The notes: generated by a model not told the origin, from the sequence alone. A DNA stretch of 64,000 nucleotides from an uncultured Candidatus Saccharibacteria bacterium (GCA_964403045.1 CAYOEP010000001.1:9009-73008); one strand, 5' to 3'. Shown: positions 15,474-51,302, numbered from the stretch's first letter. Translations and numbers: made by a program.

Positions 15474-15827
15474 TTATTTCGCGGAAGGTTTTTGCTCCTT
15501 CGCTTTGCAGGTACGGCAGAAGTCTGACTCTGGGGCAACATTCAGAACCTCTTCTTCAATCTCGGCGCCGCACTTCGCGCAGGTGCCGTAGGTACCGTCT
15601 TGAATTTTGCCGAGAGCGATGCGGATGTGGTTGAGGCGTTCGGTAAGGACTGCATCGATGCCAAGCCGAGTACTTTCCTCTTCTGCTTCATCCGCCTCTT
15701 CCTCGAAGCTGTCCACATCATCTCCGAAGTCCATCTTTTGTTTTCCTTCTTCGATCTCCTTTAAAATTGCGCGCTCTTCCTCCTCGAGTTTGCGCCGGTA
15801 GAAATCAATTTTTTCTTTACTCAGCAT
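15474..15827 (-). CDS. dksA: DksA/TraR-family C4 zinc-finger protein
   Basis: A coiled-coil N-terminus with an acidic tip (DD..D) and C-terminal CAKCGAEI...CRTC. Confidence 0.75.
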   Translation of the reverse strand: MLSKEKIDFYRRKLEEEERAILKEIEEGKQKMDFGDDVDSFEEEADEAEEESTRLGIDAVLTERLNHIRIALGKIQDGTYGTCAKCGAEIEEEVLNVAPESDFCRTCKAKEQKPSAK

Positions 15828-16083
15828 GTCTATAATGGTAGCAGAAAATTTTGCAGCCGCAACTTTTTTTACCGGCCGGGGAAACAGGGAAACTTGAACT
15901 GTTGCAGAAGAGATTTAAAGAAGAGAGCGGTGAGCAAGATATCTTGACATAAGTTGCAATTTATTTTCTTATTTTCCTCTCTAGTCTAGGCAAGAGAGAA
16001 GGCTTTGTCGCAAAATATATGTGTCGCAAAATGTAAGCGCCCTATTCCCTTTCTTCTGATGAAGAAGCTATTTTGAGGGTGTC

Positions 16084-16272
16084 CTGTGGAAAAAATGTTT
16101 GTCGACAAACATTTTTTCCACAGATATCCGAATGTTTGTCGACAAACATTTGTTATTTTCTTTCAGCATATGTTTGCTGACAAACACTTGCTAGGAAAGA
16201 ATAATAATGTTTGTCGACAAACATTGTGTTGTATAAAATGTGGATGTTTGTCGACAAACACTTTTTCCACAG
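16084..16272. repeat. Array of five copies of the 18-bp perfect palindrome ATGTTTGTCGACAAACAT at 37-38 bp spacing
   Basis: Copies at 16095-16112, 16132-16149, 16170-16187 (degenerate TGCTGA), 16207-16224 and 16244-16261. Copy 1 is embedded in a 40-bp perfect palindrome (16084-16123). Copy 5 shares the TTTTTCCACAG arm. Confidence 0.9.
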
Positions 16273-16277
16273 TAGTA

Positions 16278-16727
16278 GTGAGTGGTAATCAAGATAGAAA
16301 CCAGCAGATTGGCGCGATTGGGGAAGAGGTCGCGAGTGATTATCTCAGAAACCATGGATTCCAGATACTCGCGCGGAATGTGAGGAATAAGTTTGGGGAG
16401 CTTGATATCGTGGCACGGGAAAACAAAGAGCTGGTAGTTGTAGAGGTAAAAACGCTTCGCGCTACTGAGGGAGGGTTGCTGCCCGAAGACAATCTCACGC
16501 ACCGAAAGAGGATGCGCCTTGCGCGGTCTGCGCAGGCATTTGTTGCAACCCGTGGGGATCTTGTGGCAGAGCAGGGATGGAGAATTGACGTCATATCTAT
16601 TTTATTGTCTAATATTTTTCGAGAGGAACTTTTGAGGGACGGCGGGGAGATATTGACAAAAAGTGGGTATTATTGCGTTGTTAGACACTATCGGAACGCG
16701 GTAGGCGCGGGAGGGATGCTTCCCTAA
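16278..16727 (+). CDS. yraN: YraN/UPF0102-family endonuclease-like protein
   Basis: IGAIGEEVASDYLRNHGFQILARNVRNKFGELDIVARENKELVVVEVKTLRA matches the YraN pattern. The start is uncertain; GTG at 16278 was chosen because the upstream part of the ORF is the palindrome array. Confidence 0.65.
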   Translation: MSGNQDRNQQIGAIGEEVASDYLRNHGFQILARNVRNKFGELDIVARENKELVVVEVKTLRATEGGLLPEDNLTHRKRMRLARSAQAFVATRGDLVAEQGWRIDVISILLSNIFREELLRDGGEILTKSGYYCVVRHYRNAVGAGGMLP

Positions 16728-18287: not shown

Positions 18288-20303
18288 ATGGCAGCAGTGT
18301 TCTCAAATATATGGTTTCCGGTGGCGAGCGGGGCGTTCGCGGTAGCTGCGGCAATAGCACTCGCTTCCCGCGTGCTTTCCTACAAGAAGGGAAGCGCAAA
18401 AATGGAGGAAATTGCCCGGGCGATCCAAGAGGGCGCGCGGGCGTATCTGCGGCGGCAGTACCTCACCATTGGGGTAGTTGCAGTGATAATTGCGATAGTC
18501 ATTGGTATTTTTCTGGGCGTGGTGACGATGGCAGGATTTCTCGTGGGGGCAGTTGCATCAGGCCTTGCTGGATATATTGGCATGAGTGTATCGGTGAGGG
18601 CGAATGTGAAAACGGCAGAGGCAGCGCGCAAAGGACTCCCCACCGCGCTCCGGATAGCGTTTTTCGGTGGCTCAGTGACGGGGTTGCTGGTTGCAGGACT
18701 TGCACTCCTCTCAGTAGCGGTGTTCTATCTGCTGACGCATGATGTGCATGCGCTGGTGGGGCTGGGATTTGGCGGAAGTTTAATTTCGGTGTTCGCGCGG
18801 CTCGGCGGCGGCATTTTCACAAAGGGCGCGGACGTAGGTGCTGATTTAGTAGGAAAAGTGGAAGCGGGAATTCCTGAAGACGATCCCCGCAACCCCGCAG
18901 TGATTGCGGACAATGTAGGCGATAATGTCGGCGATTGCGCGGGGATGGCAGCGGATCTATTCGAGACCTATGCAGTCACTTCGGTGGCGGCAATGATACT
19001 GGGCAATTTGCTTTTCCCTGAAATGACACAAGCGGTTCTGTTGCCGCTGATGGTGGGCGGCATTGCGGTTATTGCTTCAGTGCTGGGGCTTTTCTTTGTG
19101 CGTCTTGGCACCCGGCAGTCCATTATGGGTGCGCTCTACAAGGGGCTTGCCGCCGCGGGCGTACTCTCGTTGATTGGCTTTTGGTTCTTGGCGCAGAGCT
19201 ATGAGGGAAACGGCGCAGCGTTTATGTTCCATAAACTTTTCTACTCGCTTCTAGTAGGCGTACTGGTTACCGCGGGTATTGTGCTCGTGACAGAATACTA
19301 TACTTCAAAGTCGTTTCGCCCCGTACGCGCTATTGCGCGTTCCTCTGTAAGTGGGCATGCGACGAACATTATCACTGGTCTTTCTGTGGGAATGGAGGCT
19401 ACAGCATTGCCAGTGGTAATCATCGTTGCGGGAATTTTGGTTGCATTCGCAATCGCAGGATTATATGGAATTGCACTTGCAGTGATGAGCATGCTGTCGC
19501 TCACAGGAATGATAGTTGCTGTTGATGCATTTGGCCCTATTACTGATAACGCGGGCGGCATTGCGGAAATGGCAGAGCTTCCGAAAGAAGTACGGCAAGT
19601 TACTGACGCACTGGATGCAGTTGGCAACACCACGAAGGCAATTACAAAAGGGTACGCGATTGGGTCCGCAGGACTTGCTGCGGTGGTACTCTTCGCGTCG
19701 TACGTGCAGGAGCTGCAGGGAACGCTTTCCACAGGGGGCACGAATGTGGCATTTCCACTAGGAGACCCCAAAATTATCGCCGGCTTGTTCCTCGGCGGGC
19801 TTATTCCCTATCTCTTCGCGGGACTTTCCATGCGCGCGGTGGGGAAGGTTGCAGAAAGCGTAGTAGCGGAGGTGCGCCGCCAGTTCCGCGAGACGCCGGG
19901 ACTAATGGAGGGAAAAACAAAACCGAACTATTCCCGTGCGGTGGACTTAGTTACCGGGGCGGCAATTCGTGAAATGATTATCCCCGCGCTGCTGCCGGTG
20001 GTGATTCCCGTGGTTGTAGGACTAACGCTCGGCGCGGCAGTGTTAGGGGGGTTGCTGGTTGGATCTATTGTCACAGGAATCTTCGTTGCAATTTCAATGA
20101 CCACCGGCGGCGCTGCTTGGGATAACGCCAAGAAATATATTGAGGAAGGACAGCACGGCGGCAAAGGCTCGGAGGCGCACAAGGCGGCGGTAACCGGCGA
20201 CACAGTAGGTGACCCCTACAAGGACACGGCTGGCCCTGCGATCAATCCATTGATTAAGGTAATCAATATTGTTGCGCTTTTGCTTATTCCTTTCTTGTTG
20301 TAG
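18288..20303 (+). CDS. hppA: Membrane-bound H+(or Na+)-translocating pyrophosphatase
   Basis: About 16 TM helices, with [18 protein letters not shown] and [20 protein letters not shown] motifs. Confidence 0.9.
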
Positions 20304-21084
20304 TGTAGGGTGATAATTTATCTTCCTCACCTTTCTTCTTTCCGTACGCGTAGTCCGCGGCCATCCAGCTTAACTCAAAGATTGCACGCTGGGTATCGGC
20401 GACTGCTTGGTCTTCAATAATGACTGCGATGTAGGGCTCCCGGAATGTCACGTAGAATACTTTATTGTCGTAGATATTCATCTCAAGTGAGAATTTGAAT
20501 GTTTCGTGGGGGACGAATTTTATTCTGGTAACTGCCATATCATAGCTAGCTATATATGCTTTCGCTACCGGGGTGTCTGGGACGATTGCTCTTTCCCAGA
20601 TCTTTCGCCTTCTTCGTTCAGCAGCATACCAGATAGCGTACTTTTTAATTGTTCTCAAAAGGCCATCGTTGTCCGAATAAGCCAAAATTTCTGTTTTAGC
20701 AGTAAGTGAATCGTTAAAGACTTCTTTAATTCCTTCTATGCCTTGGAAAAAACGGATCCCCGGCTTGCCCACCCCGAGATTATAGAGGGAGTAGAGGAGC
20801 GGCAGGCCGCTTTTTGCGAGCTCTACACTCCGCTCGAGATGCTTTAGCATTTGCTCTGCCTTCTCTGGCGGCGAGGGGACGTAGGTGAGCTTTTTCTCTT
20901 CCGGGAGATGGTAAATGAGTTGTTTTTTCTCGAGCTTCTTCAGGACATTGTAGAGATCCCCGCGTTTGAGGTTGACCTTTTGGAGTAGTTGTGCAGGAGT
21001 GGATTTCCCGCCCTGGAGGAGCGTCTCATATACCTTAATTTCTTTCGGGGAAAGCCCTATGGTTTTCAGGACATTTTCAAGCAT
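20284..21084 (-). CDS. TrmB-family transcriptional regulator
   Basis: N-terminal wHTH ([52 protein letters not shown]) and a C-terminal TrmB-type domain. Its 3' end overlaps the hppA stop by 20 bp (convergent). Confidence 0.7.
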
Positions 21085-21120
21085 AGGTACAAGAAAAGTA
21101 TATACATACCAAGATATATT

Positions 21121-21249
21121 TGTCAAGTATTAGTGACAATTTGTGAGAGAATTTTGATAAAACCCTCAGAATAAGGGAAAAATTGTCATAGTACTGTGAC
21201 AAGATTTTTGTTACAAATACTTGACAAAAATATTGGCCAGGTATATAAT
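21121..21249. promoter_or_regulatory. Divergent control region: TGACAA/TTGTCA inverted repeats plus consensus promoter TTGACA-N17-TATAAT
   Basis: TTGTCAAGTATT (21121-21132) is the reverse complement of AATACTTGACAA (21213-21224). TTGTCATAGTACTGTGACAA (21184-21203) is a near-palindrome. The -35 TTGACA is at 21221-21226 and the -10 TATAAT at 21244-21249, upstream of the SD AAGGAGG and the ATG at 21287. Confidence 0.6.
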
Positions 21250-21286
21250 TGTGGCGGAACCATTGAAAACTAAAAGGAGGGTGAAA

Positions 21287-21787
21287 ATGAACTGGGATGT
21301 GTACAAGAAAGTCTCCGCCATCAGTTACGCTATCGAAGGGCTGGCTAGCAGGCGGCTTCCCAAAAACTGGAAGATCGACCTGGATCCATTTGTGCCAATC
21401 TCGATCCGAGAAAAGAGGACATCATGGGAGGAACGCGAGAAGGCGATCATCGAAGCACTACGTGAGATCGGGCACGAGATCGTCAGGCAGCAGATCAATT
21501 GGAAAGGGTGGGATTACTGGTTCGTGAACTACGAAACCAACGTCCACCGGTGGTGCCTGGGGTGCGTACAGTCGGTTTTGGGCGACCGCAAGTACATCGA
21601 GTACGTCGAGGAGCTTAAGAAAATCTTGAAAGATCACGGAGTGAGCGAGGCGTGGGAATACTTCACCGCGCAGTTTAAGGGCTGCGGCTTGCACATCGAC
21701 AGGCTCCTCTTTGCCGTCACTTACTGCTTGTTGGCAAAGGAGTTCGAGAAAAAGAACTTGAAAGCCACCGATTCCGAGGAGGCATGA
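21287..21787 (+). CDS. Hypothetical protein (166 aa, Trp-rich), first gene of a codon-usage-distinct island
   Basis: Strong SD AAGGAGG 8 nt upstream. Codon usage differs from neighbours (ATC/GAC/AAG/CTG preferred), and no known motif was seen. Confidence 0.55.
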   Translation: MNWDVYKKVSAISYAIEGLASRRLPKNWKIDLDPFVPISIREKRTSWEEREKAIIEALREIGHEIVRQQINWKGWDYWFVNYETNVHRWCLGCVQSVLGDRKYIEYVEELKKILKDHGVSEAWEYFTAQFKGCGLHIDRLLFAVTYCLLAKEFEKKNLKATDSEEA

Positions 21788-21995
21788 GCGGGGATCCTTG
21801 GCGAAATTCCGGGGTAGTAGCTGGATATAAGCCAGGGCGACACCCGCAAGAGTTTTGGGAGTTCTCGATAAAAAACTCCCACGTCTTTTTCTGAAACGGA
21901 TATGCAATCAGTTTCAGAAAAAGCCGTTATGGTTAACGGCAAAAGTTCTTTGGTAGCTCTCGGAAGCCCCGAGACAGAAAGCGGAGGGTAGACAA

Positions 21996-22226
21996 GTGAA
22001 AAAGCAAAAAGTGATCATCATAAAATCCATGAACCTGACCCCCGAGCATGAGCTCGAGAAGCGCCTGGAGGAGTTGGGGCCCGGGTGGAATGTCGTTTCA
22101 GCTTCCACCTCTCTCACTACCCACGGCACCATGGATTATCATAACAAGAGAGAGGGAGTTATACTCGACGGGATCGCGCGACACATATACTTCGTGACCA
22201 CCGTGATCGTGGAGAAGGTTGAATAA
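21996..22226 (+). CDS. Hypothetical small protein (76 aa), island gene 2
   Basis: GTG start with GGAGGG 6 nt upstream; same GC3-rich codon usage as 21287-21787. Confidence 0.45.
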   Translation: MKKQKVIIIKSMNLTPEHELEKRLEELGPGWNVVSASTSLTTHGTMDYHNKREGVILDGIARHIYFVTTVIVEKVE

Positions 22227-22258
22227 TTCTCGGATGGCTCTCGAGACAGAGAAAGGAA

Positions 22259-22513
22259 GTGGCGATGCCTACAGGGCGAGTGTTCAAGAGTGCAGTTCCC
22301 GGAGGAGGGTTTGGCTACATGGGATACGTCCGTTACTGCGTGGACGGGATTGTCCACGTGTATGAGGCCCGTGATCCACTGGGAGTCCTCATGAAGCGGA
22401 AGGTGACTCGTTGTGATGGGAGGAGTTGCGAGGACGCGTTAGTGGAAGCCGAGGTAGGATACGAGTCACTCGGGGACCTCCTTGAGCTTCTCGAGGAGGG
22501 AAGCTCGGAGTAA
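22259..22513 (+). CDS. Hypothetical small acidic protein (84 aa), island gene 3
   Basis: The ORF is followed immediately by a strong intrinsic terminator; codon usage as the two preceding genes. Confidence 0.45.
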   Translation: MAMPTGRVFKSAVPGGGFGYMGYVRYCVDGIVHVYEARDPLGVLMKRKVTRCDGRSCEDALVEAEVGYESLGDLLELLEEGSSE

Positions 22514-22514
22514 G

Positions 22515-22555
22515 TAACGCGACTGCTGTGTGTGTTTGCACAGCAGTCTTTTTTA
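22515..22555 (+). terminator. Rho-independent terminator
   Basis: GACTGCTGTG-tgtgtttg-CACAGCAGTC, a 10-bp GC-rich stem, followed by TTTTTTATT. Confidence 0.8.
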
Positions 22556-22619
22556 TTGCCATTTCATTTTTGGTGTGGTAGCATGTCTCTTTATGAAGAG
22601 AGAGAGAAGTACTACAGAA

Positions 22620-23204
22620 ATGTATCTCGTCCCCACAGTCATTGAGAAATCACAATTCGGCGAGCGGGCGTATGATATTTACTCCCGCCTCTTGAAGGAG
22701 CGCATCATCTTTTTGGGAGGGCCGATTAACGATGCGGTGGCGAATGCGGTGATTGCGCAGTTGCTGTTCTTGGAGCACGAGGATGCGAAGAAAGATATTT
22801 ACCTCTACCTGAATACTCCGGGCGGATCGGTCACGGCGGGGCTCGCGGTTTATGACACGATGCAGTATGTGAAGCCCGATGTGGCGACTATTTGCGTGGG
22901 CATTGCGGCATCGATGGGTGCGGTGCTTCTCGCGGCAGGGAAGAAGGGTAAAAGATTTGCGCTTCCCAACTCGGAGATTTTACTGCATCAGGTAATGGGC
23001 GGCGCCGAGGGGCAGGCGGTAGAAATTGAAATCACCGCGCGCCAGATTATTAAGATTAAGAACAAGATTAACAGCATCCTCGCGAAGCACACTGGCAAAC
23101 CGCTCAAGCGCATTGAGAAAGATACTGACCGCGACTTTTACCTTGACGCGGCAAGCGCGAAGGAGTACGGCATTATTGACAAGATTGTCCAGACCAAAAA
23201 GTAG
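22620..23204 (+). CDS. clpP: ATP-dependent Clp protease proteolytic subunit
   Basis: [26 protein letters not shown]...[20 protein letters not shown]...[12 protein letters not shown]...LLHQVMGG has the Ser/His/Asp triad context. The start was trimmed to MYLVPT. Confidence 0.9.
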
Positions 23205-24465: not shown

Positions 24466-24511
24466 GAGATCGTTCGCTTTCTCGCCACAAGAGGGGGTAT
24501 AATAAGGCAGT

Positions 24512-24826
24512 ATGGACGCAATTCTCAAAGCAAACATTTTCTTTTTTATTACCGCCGTTGCGGTCGTTGTGGTCGCGGTATTAATTGCTGCAGTGCTTGT
24601 GCTAGTGCTCCAAATCCTTTCCGATATCCGCCGCATTACCTCGCTTGCCCGTGAGGAGAGTGAGCGAATTTCCCGCACGCTTGAGTTTTTCCGCAGTGGG
24701 GCACAGGAGAAGGGAGAAAAAGTGTTTGCGCTTTTGGACAAGCTTGGCGTGAAGAGAAAAAAGGGAACGCACCGCCGATCTGTAGCGCAAGGTCGGAAAG
24801 CGAAACGAACAAAAAAAGAAGAATAA
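24512..24826 (+). CDS. Small membrane-anchored protein (hypothetical)
   Basis: N-terminal TM (IFFFITAVAVVVVAVLIAAVLVLVL) and a basic C-terminus. Confidence 0.4.
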   Translation: MDAILKANIFFFITAVAVVVVAVLIAAVLVLVLQILSDIRRITSLAREESERISRTLEFFRSGAQEKGEKVFALLDKLGVKRKKGTHRRSVAQGRKAKRTKKEE

Positions 24827-25265: not shown

Positions 25266-25339
25266 TGGAGCGGGAGACGGGAATCGAACCCGCGTCCTCA
25301 GCTTGGAAGGCTGATGCACTGCCACTGTGCTACTCCCGC
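25266..25339 (-). tRNA. tRNA-Gly (anticodon TCC)
   Basis: Hand-folded cloverleaf: acceptor GCGGGAG/CTCCCGC, anticodon stem TCAGC/GCTGA with loop CTTCCAA, T-loop TTCGATT, CCA encoded. Confidence 0.8.
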
Positions 25340-26061: not shown

Positions 26062-26137
26062 GCGCCTGTAGCTCAACGGTGAGAGCAGCCGTCTTATAAG
26101 CGGCAGGTTCCTGGTTCGAATCCAGGCAGGCGCACCA
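26062..26137 (+). tRNA. tRNA-Ile (anticodon TAT)
   Basis: Acceptor GCGCCTG/CAGGCGC, D-stem GCTC/GAGC, anticodon stem GCCGT/GCGGC with loop CTTATAA (TAT at positions 34-36), T-loop TTCGAAT, discriminator A, CCA encoded. Confidence 0.65.
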
Positions 26138-31559: not shown

Positions 31560-31661
31560 GCGCGTAGCCCGGCTTTTGTGGCAGTGGCGAGCGGGGTGCT
31601 CGCGTGCGGTTTTTCTGGAGAGTGGACAGAGGAGAAGAGAGTGTGCTACAATAGGCGCGCT

Positions 31662-32426
31662 ATGGAACAACATTCATCACCGTCCGCAGCAAGCGTATAC
31701 GCGCTTCCCGCCGCGATTGTGCTTGCGGGCGCACTTATTGCGGGAGCAGTGCTCTACACAGGGGCACATTCTTCATCTCCTGCCCTGACAGGAAATGTCG
31801 CCGCAGTCGCGGGGACTGCAGGAAAAACGGCAGGGCAAAGAGGCGCCCCCCAGCCTTCCCCATCTCCAGCGCTAGACGGCTTGCGGAAGGTTACGAAGGC
31901 GGACCATATACGAGGCAGTGTCAGCGCGCCGGTAAAAGTTGTTGAATTCTCTGATATGGATTGTCCTTTCTGCGCCCGGTTTCATCCCACGATGCAGCGT
32001 ATTATGCAGGAGTACAAGGGGAAGGTTGCATGGGTTTATCGCCACTACCCACTTGATAGCCTGCACCCTGGTGCCCGCCCCGCGGCAGAAGCAGCAGAAT
32101 GTGTGGCGGAGCAGAAGGGCAATGACGGTTTTTGGCAGTATGCGGACAAGTACTTTGCAGCACGGTCTTCCGGCCAGCAGCCTGACCTAGATAAGCTTGC
32201 TATGGAAGTTGGCGTCAATATGGATCAGTTCTCGAAGTGCCGCAGTTCACGGAAATATGCAAAGCGGGTACAGGAGGACGCGGACGATGCGACGGCGTCG
32301 GGCGCGCGGGGAACGCCCTACAGCGTGGTGATTGCGCCGAACGGGCAGAAGTTTTCGTTGAACGGCGCGCAGCCCTATGAAGCAGTACGCCGGATGATTG
32401 ACGCAGCACTCAAGCTTACGAAGTAA
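31662..32426 (+). CDS. dsbA: DsbA-family thiol:disulfide oxidoreductase (membrane-anchored)
   Basis: The CPFC active site (DMDCPFCARFHP) in a thioredoxin-fold context, with an N-terminal TM. Confidence 0.8.
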   Translation: MEQHSSPSAASVYALPAAIVLAGALIAGAVLYTGAHSSSPALTGNVAAVAGTAGKTAGQRGAPQPSPSPALDGLRKVTKADHIRGSVSAPVKVVEFSDMDCPFCARFHPTMQRIMQEYKGKVAWVYRHYPLDSLHPGARPAAEAAECVAEQKGNDGFWQYADKYFAARSSGQQPDLDKLAMEVGVNMDQFSKCRSSRKYAKRVQEDADDATASGARGTPYSVVIAPNGQKFSLNGAQPYEAVRRMIDAALKLTK

Positions 32427-48952: not shown

Positions 48953-49924
48953 TTAGGGATCAACGACCCAGGTTTTCACTGTACCCTCTCCCATCAACCT
49001 CACCACGTTCGTGGTGAGGCTGATGTACTCGTCCGGCTGGAGCACCACCGGGGCATGTCCCAGCTCCTGAAGGTATACTGGCTGATCCTCAGGAGTGACT
49101 GCCCGAAAGTCGTGCTCTCCGTAATCGAGCCAGGGGCTCCATTGGTTAGGATGGAGCTCCAACACGAACGGGTTTTCTTTGGTGTACTGCGGCCCGATGT
49201 TGATGACGCGGACCGCGTTCGGTGCTGGTAGTGGTGCATTCACTGCCGCCGTGCGGGGACTGGATGGGGACAGCTGCACCTCGCCGCGGAACACCTGGGC
49301 AAGGCCGTGGTCAATGCCTCGCCGTACGTTCCCCAGTGCGCTGGTCGCCTCGGGGAAGAAGAGCGAGATGATGAGTCCCGCAAAAACCACGACGGCAAGC
49401 CGCCGCGACCATTTACGGAACTCATCGCCGCCCTTCCCGAGAAATCCGAGAATAGCGAGGACGCCCGCGGCGAGAAACAGCACGGGGATCGCAAGGGGTC
49501 GCCTCCAGAGAGGCATCACACTCATAAAGAGCGCGACGCTACTCTCGACGAGCAAGGTCCACAGCACGAGGTTGACATACCTCGCGCCGAGTCCCCGTTC
49601 CTTGTTCCTCCCTGTTGCCACAAGCGCCGCGTCCACGATCATCCCCAAGGGCGCCGCGATGAACGCCAGAAGCAGTGTTGCGGCAACCCAGAAGAGTCCC
49701 GCGATTGCCGCAAGCGGAGCTCCCACCAGCGGAAGCACGCCGAAAAGCAAGAGGGGCAGCGGTACAAGGACGACTACAAGAGCCACCCTACGCAGCGAGG
49801 CGAGGTATACCTCGCCTACAGGCCTTCCTGCCGGATCGATGCGCGCAAGGCGCGCAACGATCGCCGTAAACTCCTGCCCGCCGGAGGCGAGCAGTTCCCC
49901 AAGAATTTCCCAGAGAATTCTCAT
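48953..49924 (-). CDS. Polytopic membrane protein with C-terminal soluble domain (hypothetical), GC-rich block gene 3
   Basis: 6-7 TM helices. Local GC and codon usage (GC3-rich) are distinct from the flanking genes. Confidence 0.5.
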   Translation of the reverse strand: MRILWEILGELLASGGQEFTAIVARLARIDPAGRPVGEVYLASLRRVALVVVLVPLPLLLFGVLPLVGAPLAAIAGLFWVAATLLLAFIAAPLGMIVDAALVATGRNKERGLGARYVNLVLWTLLVESSVALFMSVMPLWRRPLAIPVLFLAAGVLAILGFLGKGGDEFRKWSRRLAVVVFAGLIISLFFPEATSALGNVRRGIDHGLAQVFRGEVQLSPSSPRTAAVNAPLPAPNAVRVINIGPQYTKENPFVLELHPNQWSPWLDYGEHDFRAVTPEDQPVYLQELGHAPVVLQPDEYISLTTNVVRLMGEGTVKTWVVDP

Positions 49925-49940
49925 TTTCGTTCATCTCCTT

Positions 49941-50534
49941 TTAGAATCCGAGGTCATGGCCCCGGTCAGTTCTGAACCGCCGGATGCGGTTGCGCAGCCG
50001 CACCATCCGGCGGAGCACTCGCCGCTCCTCCCGCGCGATTCGATCACGCGGGACGAGCGAGAGGAGGTACTGCACCCGCTCGAGGTAGCGCGCAGGGGTG
50101 CTGCACGCGATCAGCCTGTCGAACTCCTCGGGTGAGCGCAGCTCCAGTACCCCGAGGAATTCAAACAGCCGCTCCCTCTCGCTTTGCTCTCGCTTTTCTT
50201 GGAGGAAGCGGTAGAGATCGGAAAGCGCTTCCTCCAGCATGTAGAGCCGATGCATGCCGCGGTATCTGTCGATGGCATGCATTAGCCCTTGGTAAGCGCG
50301 CTCGTTGCTGGCGCGGAGCTCTCCGTAGATGAAACTCCACAGCTCCACGCGCACCTCGCCGATCCGCTTTTCGCGCTCGGCGTGATTTTGGAGAACCTCC
50401 TCCGCTCCTCTCCCAAAGGCACCTCTGAAAATTCCAAAGATGCCTGCGAGAAAGTTCACGATCGGCTTAAGCAGAGTGATGGTAACTCCCTCTGTAAATC
50501 CTTCTAGGAGCCCCCCTTTCAACCAAGACATCAT
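49941..50534 (-). CDS. Hypothetical protein with amphipathic N-terminus and Arg-rich helical body, GC-rich block gene 2
   Basis: 197 aa; no motif recognised. Confidence 0.45.
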   Translation of the reverse strand: MMSWLKGGLLEGFTEGVTITLLKPIVNFLAGIFGIFRGAFGRGAEEVLQNHAEREKRIGEVRVELWSFIYGELRASNERAYQGLMHAIDRYRGMHRLYMLEEALSDLYRFLQEKREQSERERLFEFLGVLELRSPEEFDRLIACSTPARYLERVQYLLSLVPRDRIAREERRVLRRMVRLRNRIRRFRTDRGHDLGF

Positions 50535-50541
50535 TCTCCTC

Positions 50542-51135
50542 CTAGTCGCGGTAGATGTCGAGGTGGCCGCGCACCTCGCTCCCCGCGACGAAAAACTCCA
50601 GCGCGGCGTCCCGCTTCACCTTCTTGCGGTAGAGCGTGACGCCATCCTTATCGGTCAATTTCAGTTTCTTCCATCCGCGGGGAAGCTCGGGATCAACCAC
50701 GACCACTTGCGCTCCCCGCACGCCTTTGTCCTTCTTGTTGAGGACCTGCACAAAGACCGTGCAGATCCTTCCCTTCCGGGCTTTCCGGAAGAGCAGGCGC
50801 GCCGGCGCCACCTTTTCTCCCTTGATGACGACCGGCTTGCGCTTGGATTTGGTAGTGCCCGCGATTTGGGCGATCACCGAATATTTCCCGGGCTTGTCGC
50901 AGATGAACTTCTTGGTCGCCTGACCCTCGGCGTCGGTGAGCAAGGCCTCCTCTTCCTCCTTCCCCTGCTCGAGCAGGTAAAGGAGAATGGGAACCCCCTC
51001 ACGGGGCAATTTTTCGCTGCTCCGGTCGATCACGGTGACAGTTGCGTAAAACTGCCATCCGTCTTCTGTCTCTACCGGCTCGGTGATGGAGATTTCCCGT
51101 ATGATGAGAAGCTCTTGTTGCACGAACCCTACCAT
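50542..51135 (-). CDS. Hypothetical protein with two carboxypeptidase-regulatory-like beta-sandwich repeats, GC-rich block gene 1
   Basis: LTDAEGQATKKFICDKPGKYSV and LTDKDGVTLYRKKV resemble CarbopepD_reg-type repeats. There is no signal peptide. Confidence 0.4.
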   Translation of the reverse strand: MVGFVQQELLIIREISITEPVETEDGWQFYATVTVIDRSSEKLPREGVPILLYLLEQGKEEEEALLTDAEGQATKKFICDKPGKYSVIAQIAGTTKSKRKPVVIKGEKVAPARLLFRKARKGRICTVFVQVLNKKDKGVRGAQVVVVDPELPRGWKKLKLTDKDGVTLYRKKVKRDAALEFFVAGSEVRGHLDIYRD

Positions 51136-51302
51136 TCTACCTCCTTTCTGTCTGGGTCGTTTTCAGTTGTGAGATGCTTCTTCTAGCTTACCATAAAATT
51201 AATAAATAGTCAAGTCCTTATATTTAAGTATAAGCGTGGCGTAGGGGCAATATTGACACCCTCTTGCTTCTCGGTATGTTGGAGCGGTATAGTGTGCGGG
51301 AA

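Follow-up and report, generated by a model that had tools for sequence, protein, structure and literature searches.

Three orphan genes in a candidate accessory operon beside a divergent TrmB-like regulator gene, upstream of clpP in a candidate-phylum bacterium

Three small genes, here called g1, g2 and g3, lie between the gene for a TrmB-like regulator and clpP in a 64,000-nucleotide stretch of DNA from an uncultured Candidatus Saccharibacteria bacterium (GCA_964403045.1, CAYOEP010000001.1:9009-73008). This whole stretch is called the window below; all coordinates are window positions, and 45 core genes of the window served as the comparison set. The interpretation we favor, at somewhat better than even confidence, is that g1-g3 constitute a lineage-specific accessory operon repressed by the TrmB-like protein, which would also regulate its own gene. 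The gene order is nusA, H+-pyrophosphatase (18288-20303, plus strand), the regulator (20284-21084, minus strand), a 199-bp divergent intergenic region, g1 (21287-21787, plus; 166 aa), a 208-bp spacer (21788-21995, plus), g2 (21996-22226, plus; 76 aa), g3 (22265-22513, plus; 82 aa), an intrinsic terminator that would mark the operon end (22521-22554, plus), clpP (22593-23204) and tyrS. An initial annotation of this DNA had proposed a small regulated accessory module here, and our analysis supports that proposal, with the module apparently confined to one lineage.

The divergent region carries the most distinctive of the sequence features. The g1 promoter, TTGACA-17-TATAAT at 21221-21249 on the plus strand, is the only 12/12 match to the consensus in the 64 kb, which bears out the initial description of it as perfect, and the regulator gene has a TTGACA-18-TATACT promoter on the minus strand (21097-21126) that matches at 11/12 positions. 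Five sites in the 64 kb depart from the promoter consensus by at most one mismatch, where shuffled sequence would give 0.78, and this intergenic region accounts for two of them. Only 12 nt without a Shine-Dalgarno (SD) sequence separate the regulator's -10 box from its ATG, so its leader is very short or absent. Superimposed on these promoters is a repeated 20-bp unit, TTGTCA-N8-TGACAA, with two perfect copies (O1 and O2), one copy with a single mismatch (O3) and one degenerate copy. Candidate operator O1 (TTGTCAAGTATTAGTGACAA, 21120-21139) is perfect and lies over the -35 box of the regulator promoter; the degenerate copy (TTGTGAGAGAATTTTGATAA, 21141-21160), which with its two mismatches is at chance level when taken alone, abuts O1. 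Candidate operator O2 (TTGTCATAGTACTGTGACAA, 21183-21202) has perfect half-sites and lies at about -73 to -54 from the inferred g1 transcription start; transcription is predicted to begin near 21256 for g1 and near 21090 for the regulator gene. Candidate operator O3 (TTGTTACAAATACTTGACAA, 21208-21227), the copy with one mismatch, lies over the -35 box of g1. Relative to its own promoter, each of O1 and O3 extends from about -49 to -30. When O3 is reverse-complemented it agrees with O1 at 18 of 20 positions, counting the spacer, and the two belong to a 26-nt inverted repeat that is 88% complementary. The rest of the window holds just two TTGTCA-N8-TGACAA sites, both with two mismatches, which equals the chance expectation. 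A scan for TGACAA half-sites over the same 64-kb window places five of its 30 occurrences inside the 199 bp (P about 2e-8).

The inverted repeats TTGTCAAGTATT (21120) and AATACTTGACAA (21216) and the palindrome TTGTCAtagtactgTGACAA (21183-21202), to which the initial annotation had drawn attention, are thus all present, and the three TTGTCA-N8-TGACAA sites are the stronger pattern. What had been taken for an inverted partner 90 bp upstream does exist, but it is better read as the -35 box of the regulator promoter inside a mirrored operator copy. The repeats remain good candidates for operators of the regulator, as had been suggested, the half-site recurring in the orthologous region of the closest relative (below). 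Characterized members of the TrmB family recognize inverted repeats of palindromic form (TACT-N3-AGTA, TATCAC-N5-GTGATA, TACT-N7-8-GAGTA), repress from sites overlapping core promoter elements, and in some cases regulate their own genes (PMC4158304); a palindromic inverted repeat that could serve as such an operator is present here as a sequence feature. Neither the promoter region nor the g1/g2 spacer or the terminator has another copy in the window and loci compared, so these elements do not belong to a repeat family or a family of miniature inverted-repeat transposable elements.

Since mirrored candidate operators cover both -35 boxes, with O2 in addition, and since the g1 promoter should need no activator, repression together with autoregulation is the most economical reading of this arrangement. 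In the mechanism we propose, g1-g3 would be transcribed as one unit from the full-consensus sigma-70 promoter to the terminator before clpP. The regulator, most likely as a dimer, would bind the candidate palindromes; occupation of O3, probably aided by O2, would block the -35 box of the operon and repress g1-g3, and occupation of the mirrored O1 would block the regulator's own -35 box and give negative autoregulation. A ligand of the regulator's C-terminal domain would release the repression. The spacer would probably set the ratio of g1 to g2 and g3, by partial termination at its second hairpin (H2) and/or by stabilization of the mRNA.

The assignment of the regulator to the TrmB family, made in the initial annotation, is confirmed by a match to PF01978 (TrmB) over residues 7-75 at 49.1 bits, against a Pfam gathering cut-off of 25.6. 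Its start is ATG 21084, which gives a product of 266 aa, and exactly this 266-aa product is also encoded on an independent Logan contig. The protein consists of an N-terminal winged helix and a C-terminal part of about 190 aa for which no classification was obtained. Weak MarR and PadR profile matches also fall in the winged helix-turn-helix, TrmB being the best and the sole family above threshold. PF11495, the TrmB effector/sugar-binding domain, was not matched, no Pfam match at E <= 1 was found outside the winged helix-turn-helix, the NCBIfam TrmBL1 and TrmBL2 equivalogs score far under their cut-offs, and PDB sequences gave no match; it is therefore a TrmB-domain protein and not an orthologue of TrmB or TrmBL1. 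With archaeal TrmB/TrmBL1 (Tgr; Thermococcales) and Halobacterium TrmB (VNG1451C) it shares the N-terminal PF01978 winged helix, and as with archaeal TrmB/TrmBL1 its gene adjoins the presumed target operon and the candidate operators have a hexamer-spacer-hexamer form over core promoter elements, one of them over the promoter of the regulator gene itself. Family members that autoregulate have been described (PMC4158304). It differs from the archaeal proteins in its bacterial host, a member of the candidate phyla radiation (CPR), with promoters of sigma-70 type, in a C-terminal stretch of 190 aa that is unclassified and gave no PF11495 match, in the putative half-site TGACAA with spacer N8, and in its presumed targets, which encode three orphan proteins and not sugar transport or glycolysis functions. 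Divergent MarR/PadR cassettes have the same layout of back-to-back promoters with palindromic operators over the -35 boxes, autoregulation and operon repression; the regulator here exceeds MarR proteins in length by about 100 aa and, unlike them, carries a C-terminal domain of its own. A search found no literature on TrmB in Parcubacteria or on the assembly accession. The convergent 3' ends of the H+-pyrophosphatase and regulator genes overlap by 20 nt (20284-20303), and homology between the regulator and its closest relative stops near residue 244, leaving about 20 C-terminal residues of the regulator unmatched.

That closest relative, 67% identical, is encoded on a 2.3-kb metagenome contig (Ga0213870_1020916, here L003); other relatives are 28-34% identical, and a scan of a genome collection gave two distant ones (30-34%). 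In L003 the regulator gene lies directly upstream of clpP (75% nucleotide identity) and is co-directional with it, and so is inverted relative to the window. The three genes g1-g3 are not between regulator and clpP, and the divergent partner is a different gene (X; L003 1-531), truncated by the contig end with at least 96 aa visible. Gene X has no Pfam match and no similarity to g1; it has a strong SD sequence (AAGGAGGTGA) and a TTGACA-18-TATAAT promoter. The L003 regulator promoter, TTGACA-17-TATACT, is followed by 6 nt and then the ATG, the same architecture as in the window, and TTGTCA/TGAYAR palindromes with a 7-nt spacer lie over both -35 boxes. Conservation of the same three genes in relatives, which the initial annotation had named as an argument against a module of this kind, was thus not seen in the only close relative found; absence at the orthologous position refers to L003 alone, with its 2.3 kb, the remaining relatives being distant at 28-34% identity. 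A 30%-identical TrmB-like homologue in a metagenome-assembled genome (MAG casp150-mb.315; L002, 574-2670) is divergent from tyrS, and in the window, too, tyrS is found on that side of the regulator, at a distance of two genes. This arrangement hints at an older neighborhood of the regulator with tyrS and clpP.

The three genes also stand apart in codon usage. Their GC content at third codon positions (GC3) is 0.75 for g1, 0.69 for g2 and 0.63 for g3, against 0.569 +/- 0.065 in the 45 core genes. Taken together, g1-g3 use ATC for 81% of Ile codons (13/13 in g1) where core genes use it for 35%, GAG for 77% of Glu codons (core 50%), TAC for 87% of Tyr codons (core 55%), AAC for 78% of Asn codons (core 48%) and ACC for 64% of Thr codons (core 30%). 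A GC3-rich codon set had been noted before, and properly computed statistics are indeed not uniform: the deviation is strong in g1 and weak, in the same direction, in g2 and g3, and it holds for ATC and GAG; but Lys AAG is only slightly raised, and Asp GAC and Leu CTG are not enriched. The difference from the surrounding genes likewise holds against the 45 core genes but is not unique to this block. A second block of three genes of unknown function (48953-51135, minus strand; 197 aa, 197 aa and a membrane-rich 323 aa) has a GC3 of 0.71-0.78, among the highest in the window, uses ATC for 30 of 37 Ile codons, and has two genes with a canonical GGAGG SD sequence. No Pfam family was matched above threshold by the second block, a Big_1 match being sub-threshold only. 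By likelihood, second-block usage is preferred over core usage for g1-g3 by +26.5 nats (g1 +20.5, g2 +3.0, g3 +3.0), and core usage is preferred by all 45 core genes, including nusA, clpP and tyrS, among which the maximum for Ile ATC is 61%. What makes the departure of g1-g3 distinctive is its direction and not its size. The second block shares this GC3-rich signature with g1-g3 and differs from them in having no adjacent regulator, consensus promoter or TGACAA palindromes and in encoding larger proteins. Since it is common to both blocks, the signature marks a class of genes rather than a single island. An open reading frame (ORF) at 50440-51186 on the plus strand was dismissed as a shadow ORF and replaced by two minus-strand genes.

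Translation-start signals divide the genes in a similar way. A canonical SD sequence (AAGGAGGGTG, 21274-21283, plus strand) places GGAGG 6 nt before the ATG of g1, a likewise canonical GGAGGG lies 8 nt upstream of the GTG of g2, and the SD sequence of g3 is weak (AAAGGAAG). Gene starts with GGAGG at the proper distance number about five in the 64 kb (g1, g2, 38974, 49941 and 50542). Most neighbors, including the regulator and clpP genes, have no SD sequence and carry a -10-like box (TATACT, TAGCAT, TATAAT, TACAAT or TATAGA) 6-12 nt before the ATG, examples lying at 21084-21102 (minus), 22556-22595 (plus), 24490-24514 (plus), 31640-31664 (plus) and 15827-15845 (minus); this combination implies leaderless or very short-leader mRNAs and suggests that such mRNAs are widespread in the source genome. 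The genes for the TrmB-like homologues in L002, L003 and the further locus L004 show the same arrangement of a -10 box close to the ATG. By their codon and translation-start signals g1-g3 would thus form a distinct gene class, either recently acquired or rapidly turning over.

We take g1-g3 to be real genes. The GC periodicity over codon positions is significant for each (p = 3e-13 for g1, 1.5e-5 for g2 and 2e-3 for g3), and a codon model trained on the window finds the annotated frame best for all three, with low margins; for g1 the margin of sense over antisense is a small 0.04 per codon. The coordinates first given for g1 and g2 (21287-21787 and 21996-22226, g2 starting at GTG) stand, but for g3 the ATG at 22265, which yields 82 aa and agrees with the NCBI annotation, is a more likely start than the GTG at 22259. 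In a Candidatus Parcubacteria MAG record g2 corresponds to RME59812.1 (locus tag D6779_03345) and g3 to D6779_03350. The g1 product (19.7 kDa, pI 6.9) is predicted to be helical and has eight Trp residues and CLGC and CGLH motifs, which may form a metal site; its AlphaFold2 model (predicted local distance difference test, pLDDT, 48) is unusable and was left out of the fold search. The g3 product is an acidic 8.9-kDa protein (pI 4.8) with three Cys residues. Reading of the sequences, made with no dedicated transmembrane or signal-peptide predictor, found no transmembrane segments in g1-g3. The products are probably small soluble cytoplasmic proteins.

A single-sequence model of the g2 product (pLDDT 83.4) shows a beta-alpha-beta-beta unit. 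Foldseek searches with it against PDB and BFVD gave nothing significant, and the best BFVD fold neighbors, uncharacterized phage proteins at E about 0.02, were set aside for that reason. Compared with dodecins, small beta-alpha-beta-beta flavin-storage proteins, the g2 model has a shorter helix and a longer hairpin; g2 has no Pfam match at E <= 1, no dodecin occurs among its PDB sequence matches at E <= 10, and the non-significant Foldseek matches include DUF74/UPF0145, uS10 and uL23-like folds that appear to fit the model equally well.

Database searches support the orphan status of all three proteins. Among 5.8 billion clustered proteins g1, g2 and g3 found only themselves, as did g1 in an exhaustive HMMER scan of 1.84 billion representatives. 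The initial statement that the proteins hold no recognizable motif agrees with searches of Pfam, PHROG, PADLOC and NCBIfam, which gave nothing above threshold, the few Pfam and PHROG matches lying at E >= 0.07; a similarity of g3 to a PHROG dGTPase inhibitor (E 0.07) is at chance level, and a Sel_put match (E 0.14) was treated as chance. PDB sequence searches with g1-g3 found nothing under E 0.1. In tblastn searches of 50,697 phage genomes (INPHARED) the best E values were 0.09 for g1 and 0.8 for g2, neither significant, with no match for g3, and the regulator also found no match there. IMG/VR scans with g1-g3 and with the second-block proteins at 49941 and 50542 revealed no relative, the PLSDB plasmids contained nothing resembling g1, and no phage or integrase genes were seen near the block.

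The spacer between g1 and g2 folds into five hairpins (z = -4.4 against shuffles; -4.38 before rounding), so that the earlier picture of a structured region of about 200 bp with one terminator-like hairpin stands, but with five hairpins and not four. These are H1 (21788-21847, -30.7 kcal/mol), H2 (21856-21881, -10.2 kcal/mol), which is followed by a U-rich run (CGUCUUUUUCU), H3 (21881-21927, -20.1 kcal/mol), H4 (21923-21940, -10.6 kcal/mol) and H5 (21946-21988, -13.2 kcal/mol). Rfam gave no match to the spacer at the gathering score and only chance-level hairpins of microRNA type at E <= 10. An ORF of 29 codons (MQSVSEKAVMVNGKSSLVALGSPETESGG, 21902-21991, plus strand) starts in the H3 loop and stops 4 nt before the g2 GTG, with no SD sequence; it may be due to chance or may be an upstream ORF that couples translation to g2. 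The strong terminator that had been placed just before clpP is also confirmed: its hairpin (22521-22548; 12-bp stem, 4-nt loop, -19.7 kcal/mol) is followed by TTTTTT.

Contig ends of other assemblies fall in this locus. In GCA_003695395.1, from the same organism, contig RFJQ01000347 ends at 20451 and RFJQ01000203 starts at 21695, and Logan contig SRR7905022_211550 covers 19455-21235 at 100% identity; over the lengths they share, these contigs and the window are 99.95-100% identical. Positions 21236-21694, which hold the g1 -10 box, its SD sequence and the first 408 nt of g1, are present only in the 84.9-kb contig that includes the window. Because the promoter spans 21235 and the g1 frame runs through 21695, we regard the joins as genuine. 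Coverage may have been low where the contig ends cluster, or the population may contain a variant in the promoter and 5' region of g1. Inverted repeats of the kind expected of an invertible segment were sought at the contig ends of the other assemblies, and none found there was convincing.

Several observations weigh against the accessory-operon interpretation or limit it. Two of the five half-sites in the divergent region are the -35 hexamers themselves, so part of the apparent operator signal is promoter signal, and the palindrome spacer differs between orthologues (N8 in the window, N7 in L003). The regulator may act as an activator at g1-g3, or have no role there, and the promoter and terminator evidence does not decide whether g2 and g3 are co-transcribed with g1. 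Since the opposite strand of the spacer folds equally well (z = -4.43), a role for it at the RNA level is unproven. In size, the codon departure (-0.05 nats per codon) does not leave the range spanned by the window genes, several AT3-rich genes deviating more, and the bulk GC of the block is ordinary and equals the genome average. No mobility genes, att-like or flanking repeats or adjacent tRNA were found between the H+-pyrophosphatase gene and clpP, the nearest tRNA to the block being at 25266. The synteny comparison covers one close relative, on a contig of 2.3 kb. Horizontal acquisition, proposed in the initial annotation, is suggested indirectly: codon usage is atypical, clearly in g1 and weakly in g2 and g3, the SD sequences and the orphan proteins set the block apart, and synteny is broken. 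Against it stand the ordinary bulk GC and the lack of mobility genes, flanking repeats and a tRNA in that interval.

The strongest competing explanation is that g1-g3 are native, fast-evolving, lineage-specific genes whose GC3-rich codons and SD sequences reflect selection for high or burst expression upon derepression. It accounts for the ordinary GC content and the lack of mobility signatures, and the core gene that comes next in GC3, at 0.66, is clpP, which is typically well expressed; the recurrence of the signature in the second block could likewise indicate an expression class and not a donor. Orphan proteins are moreover commonplace in CPR genomes. However, every one of the 45 core genes prefers core codons and none comes near the complete use of ATC for Ile seen in g1, and L003 has a different gene at this position; we consider a native origin possible though not probable. 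A different objection concerns the palindromes, which might be a duplicated extended -35 or UP-like element and no operators at all, the TrmB-like protein regulating elsewhere or acting as an activator. The identity of O1 and O3 through the spacer and the coincidence of two half-sites with -35 hexamers would fit such a duplication, but O2 is a perfect palindrome outside any promoter, 8 nt from each -35 box there is an inverted half-site without any promoter role, palindromes of the same half-site recur in L003, and a 12/12 promoter needs no activator. We think this explanation unlikely.

The initial annotation had also offered a toxin/immunity or anti-defense function or phage-derived cargo. 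A toxin-antitoxin or immunity pair, an anti-defense module or phage cargo would agree with genes that are small, adjacent and, by prediction, tightly regulated, with the acidic g3 product, and with the dGTPase inhibitor and phage-fold similarities of g3 and g2, had these exceeded chance or reached significance. Yet g1-g3 have no significant match in Pfam, PADLOC, NCBIfam or PHROG and no relative in the phage genomes, in IMG/VR or, for g1, in PLSDB, phage and integrase genes are not nearby, and a separate regulator of ligand-binding type is unlike the usual toxin-antitoxin logic, in which the antitoxin regulates its own synthesis; this origin we judge to be quite improbable. Least probable of all, and very much so, is an artefact, either of ORFs that are not genes or of a chimeric assembly join within g1. 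The stretch found in one contig alone, the narrow sense/antisense margin of g1 and the lack of homologues with which purifying selection could be assessed are what could be cited for it; on the other hand the promoter spans one putative join, the g1 frame and codon signature run through the other, the flanking contigs match the window at 100% or 99.99% identity as far as they reach, and the periodicity, the canonical SD sites and the confident g2 model all speak for genuine genes. The accessory operon under TrmB-like control thus remains our preferred interpretation. A bolder extension of it, which we put forward with considerable doubt, is that the regulator and its mirrored promoter/operator region make up a conserved expression cassette next to clpP whose divergent cargo is exchanged among close Parcubacteria. 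The cargo would then be g1-g3 in the window and, just as doubtfully, gene X in L003, with a similar consensus promoter and strong SD sequence and with the cassette inverted; on this extension the cargo may even vary within the population, given that independent assemblies have contig ends at 21235 and 21695, one assembly at each.

Two further features of the window lie outside the block. A tRNA-Ile gene with anticodon TAT is at 26062-26137 (plus strand), and ATA makes up 13% of the Ile codons in core genes; such a tRNA is uncommon in bacteria, where AUA is usually decoded by a lysidine-modified CAT tRNA. At 16084-16272, at the 5' end of a UPF0102/NERD-like gene (16095-16727), there are inverted and direct repeats that give BLAST self-matches in both orientations at 72-100% identity.

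The arrangement described here, a TrmB-domain regulator with a divergent target operon, is a known one with new cargo, and nothing points to a new kind of system. For a CPR bacterium that has not been cultivated, the regulatory half is exceptionally tidy: the consensus promoter should fire in E. coli, the three palindromic sites are well defined, and a TrmB-domain regulator goes with them as presumed partner. Parcubacteria could thereby gain one of their first defined operator/regulator pairs. The genes g1-g3 add three proteins to the pool of true orphans. If the cassette extension were true, the cassette would be a hotspot that captures or gives birth to GC3-rich, SD-led orphan genes under ready-made tight control. 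The contrast between SD-led, GC3-rich orphans and largely SD-less core genes also offers a simple way to tell recent or accessory genes from the core in this lineage.

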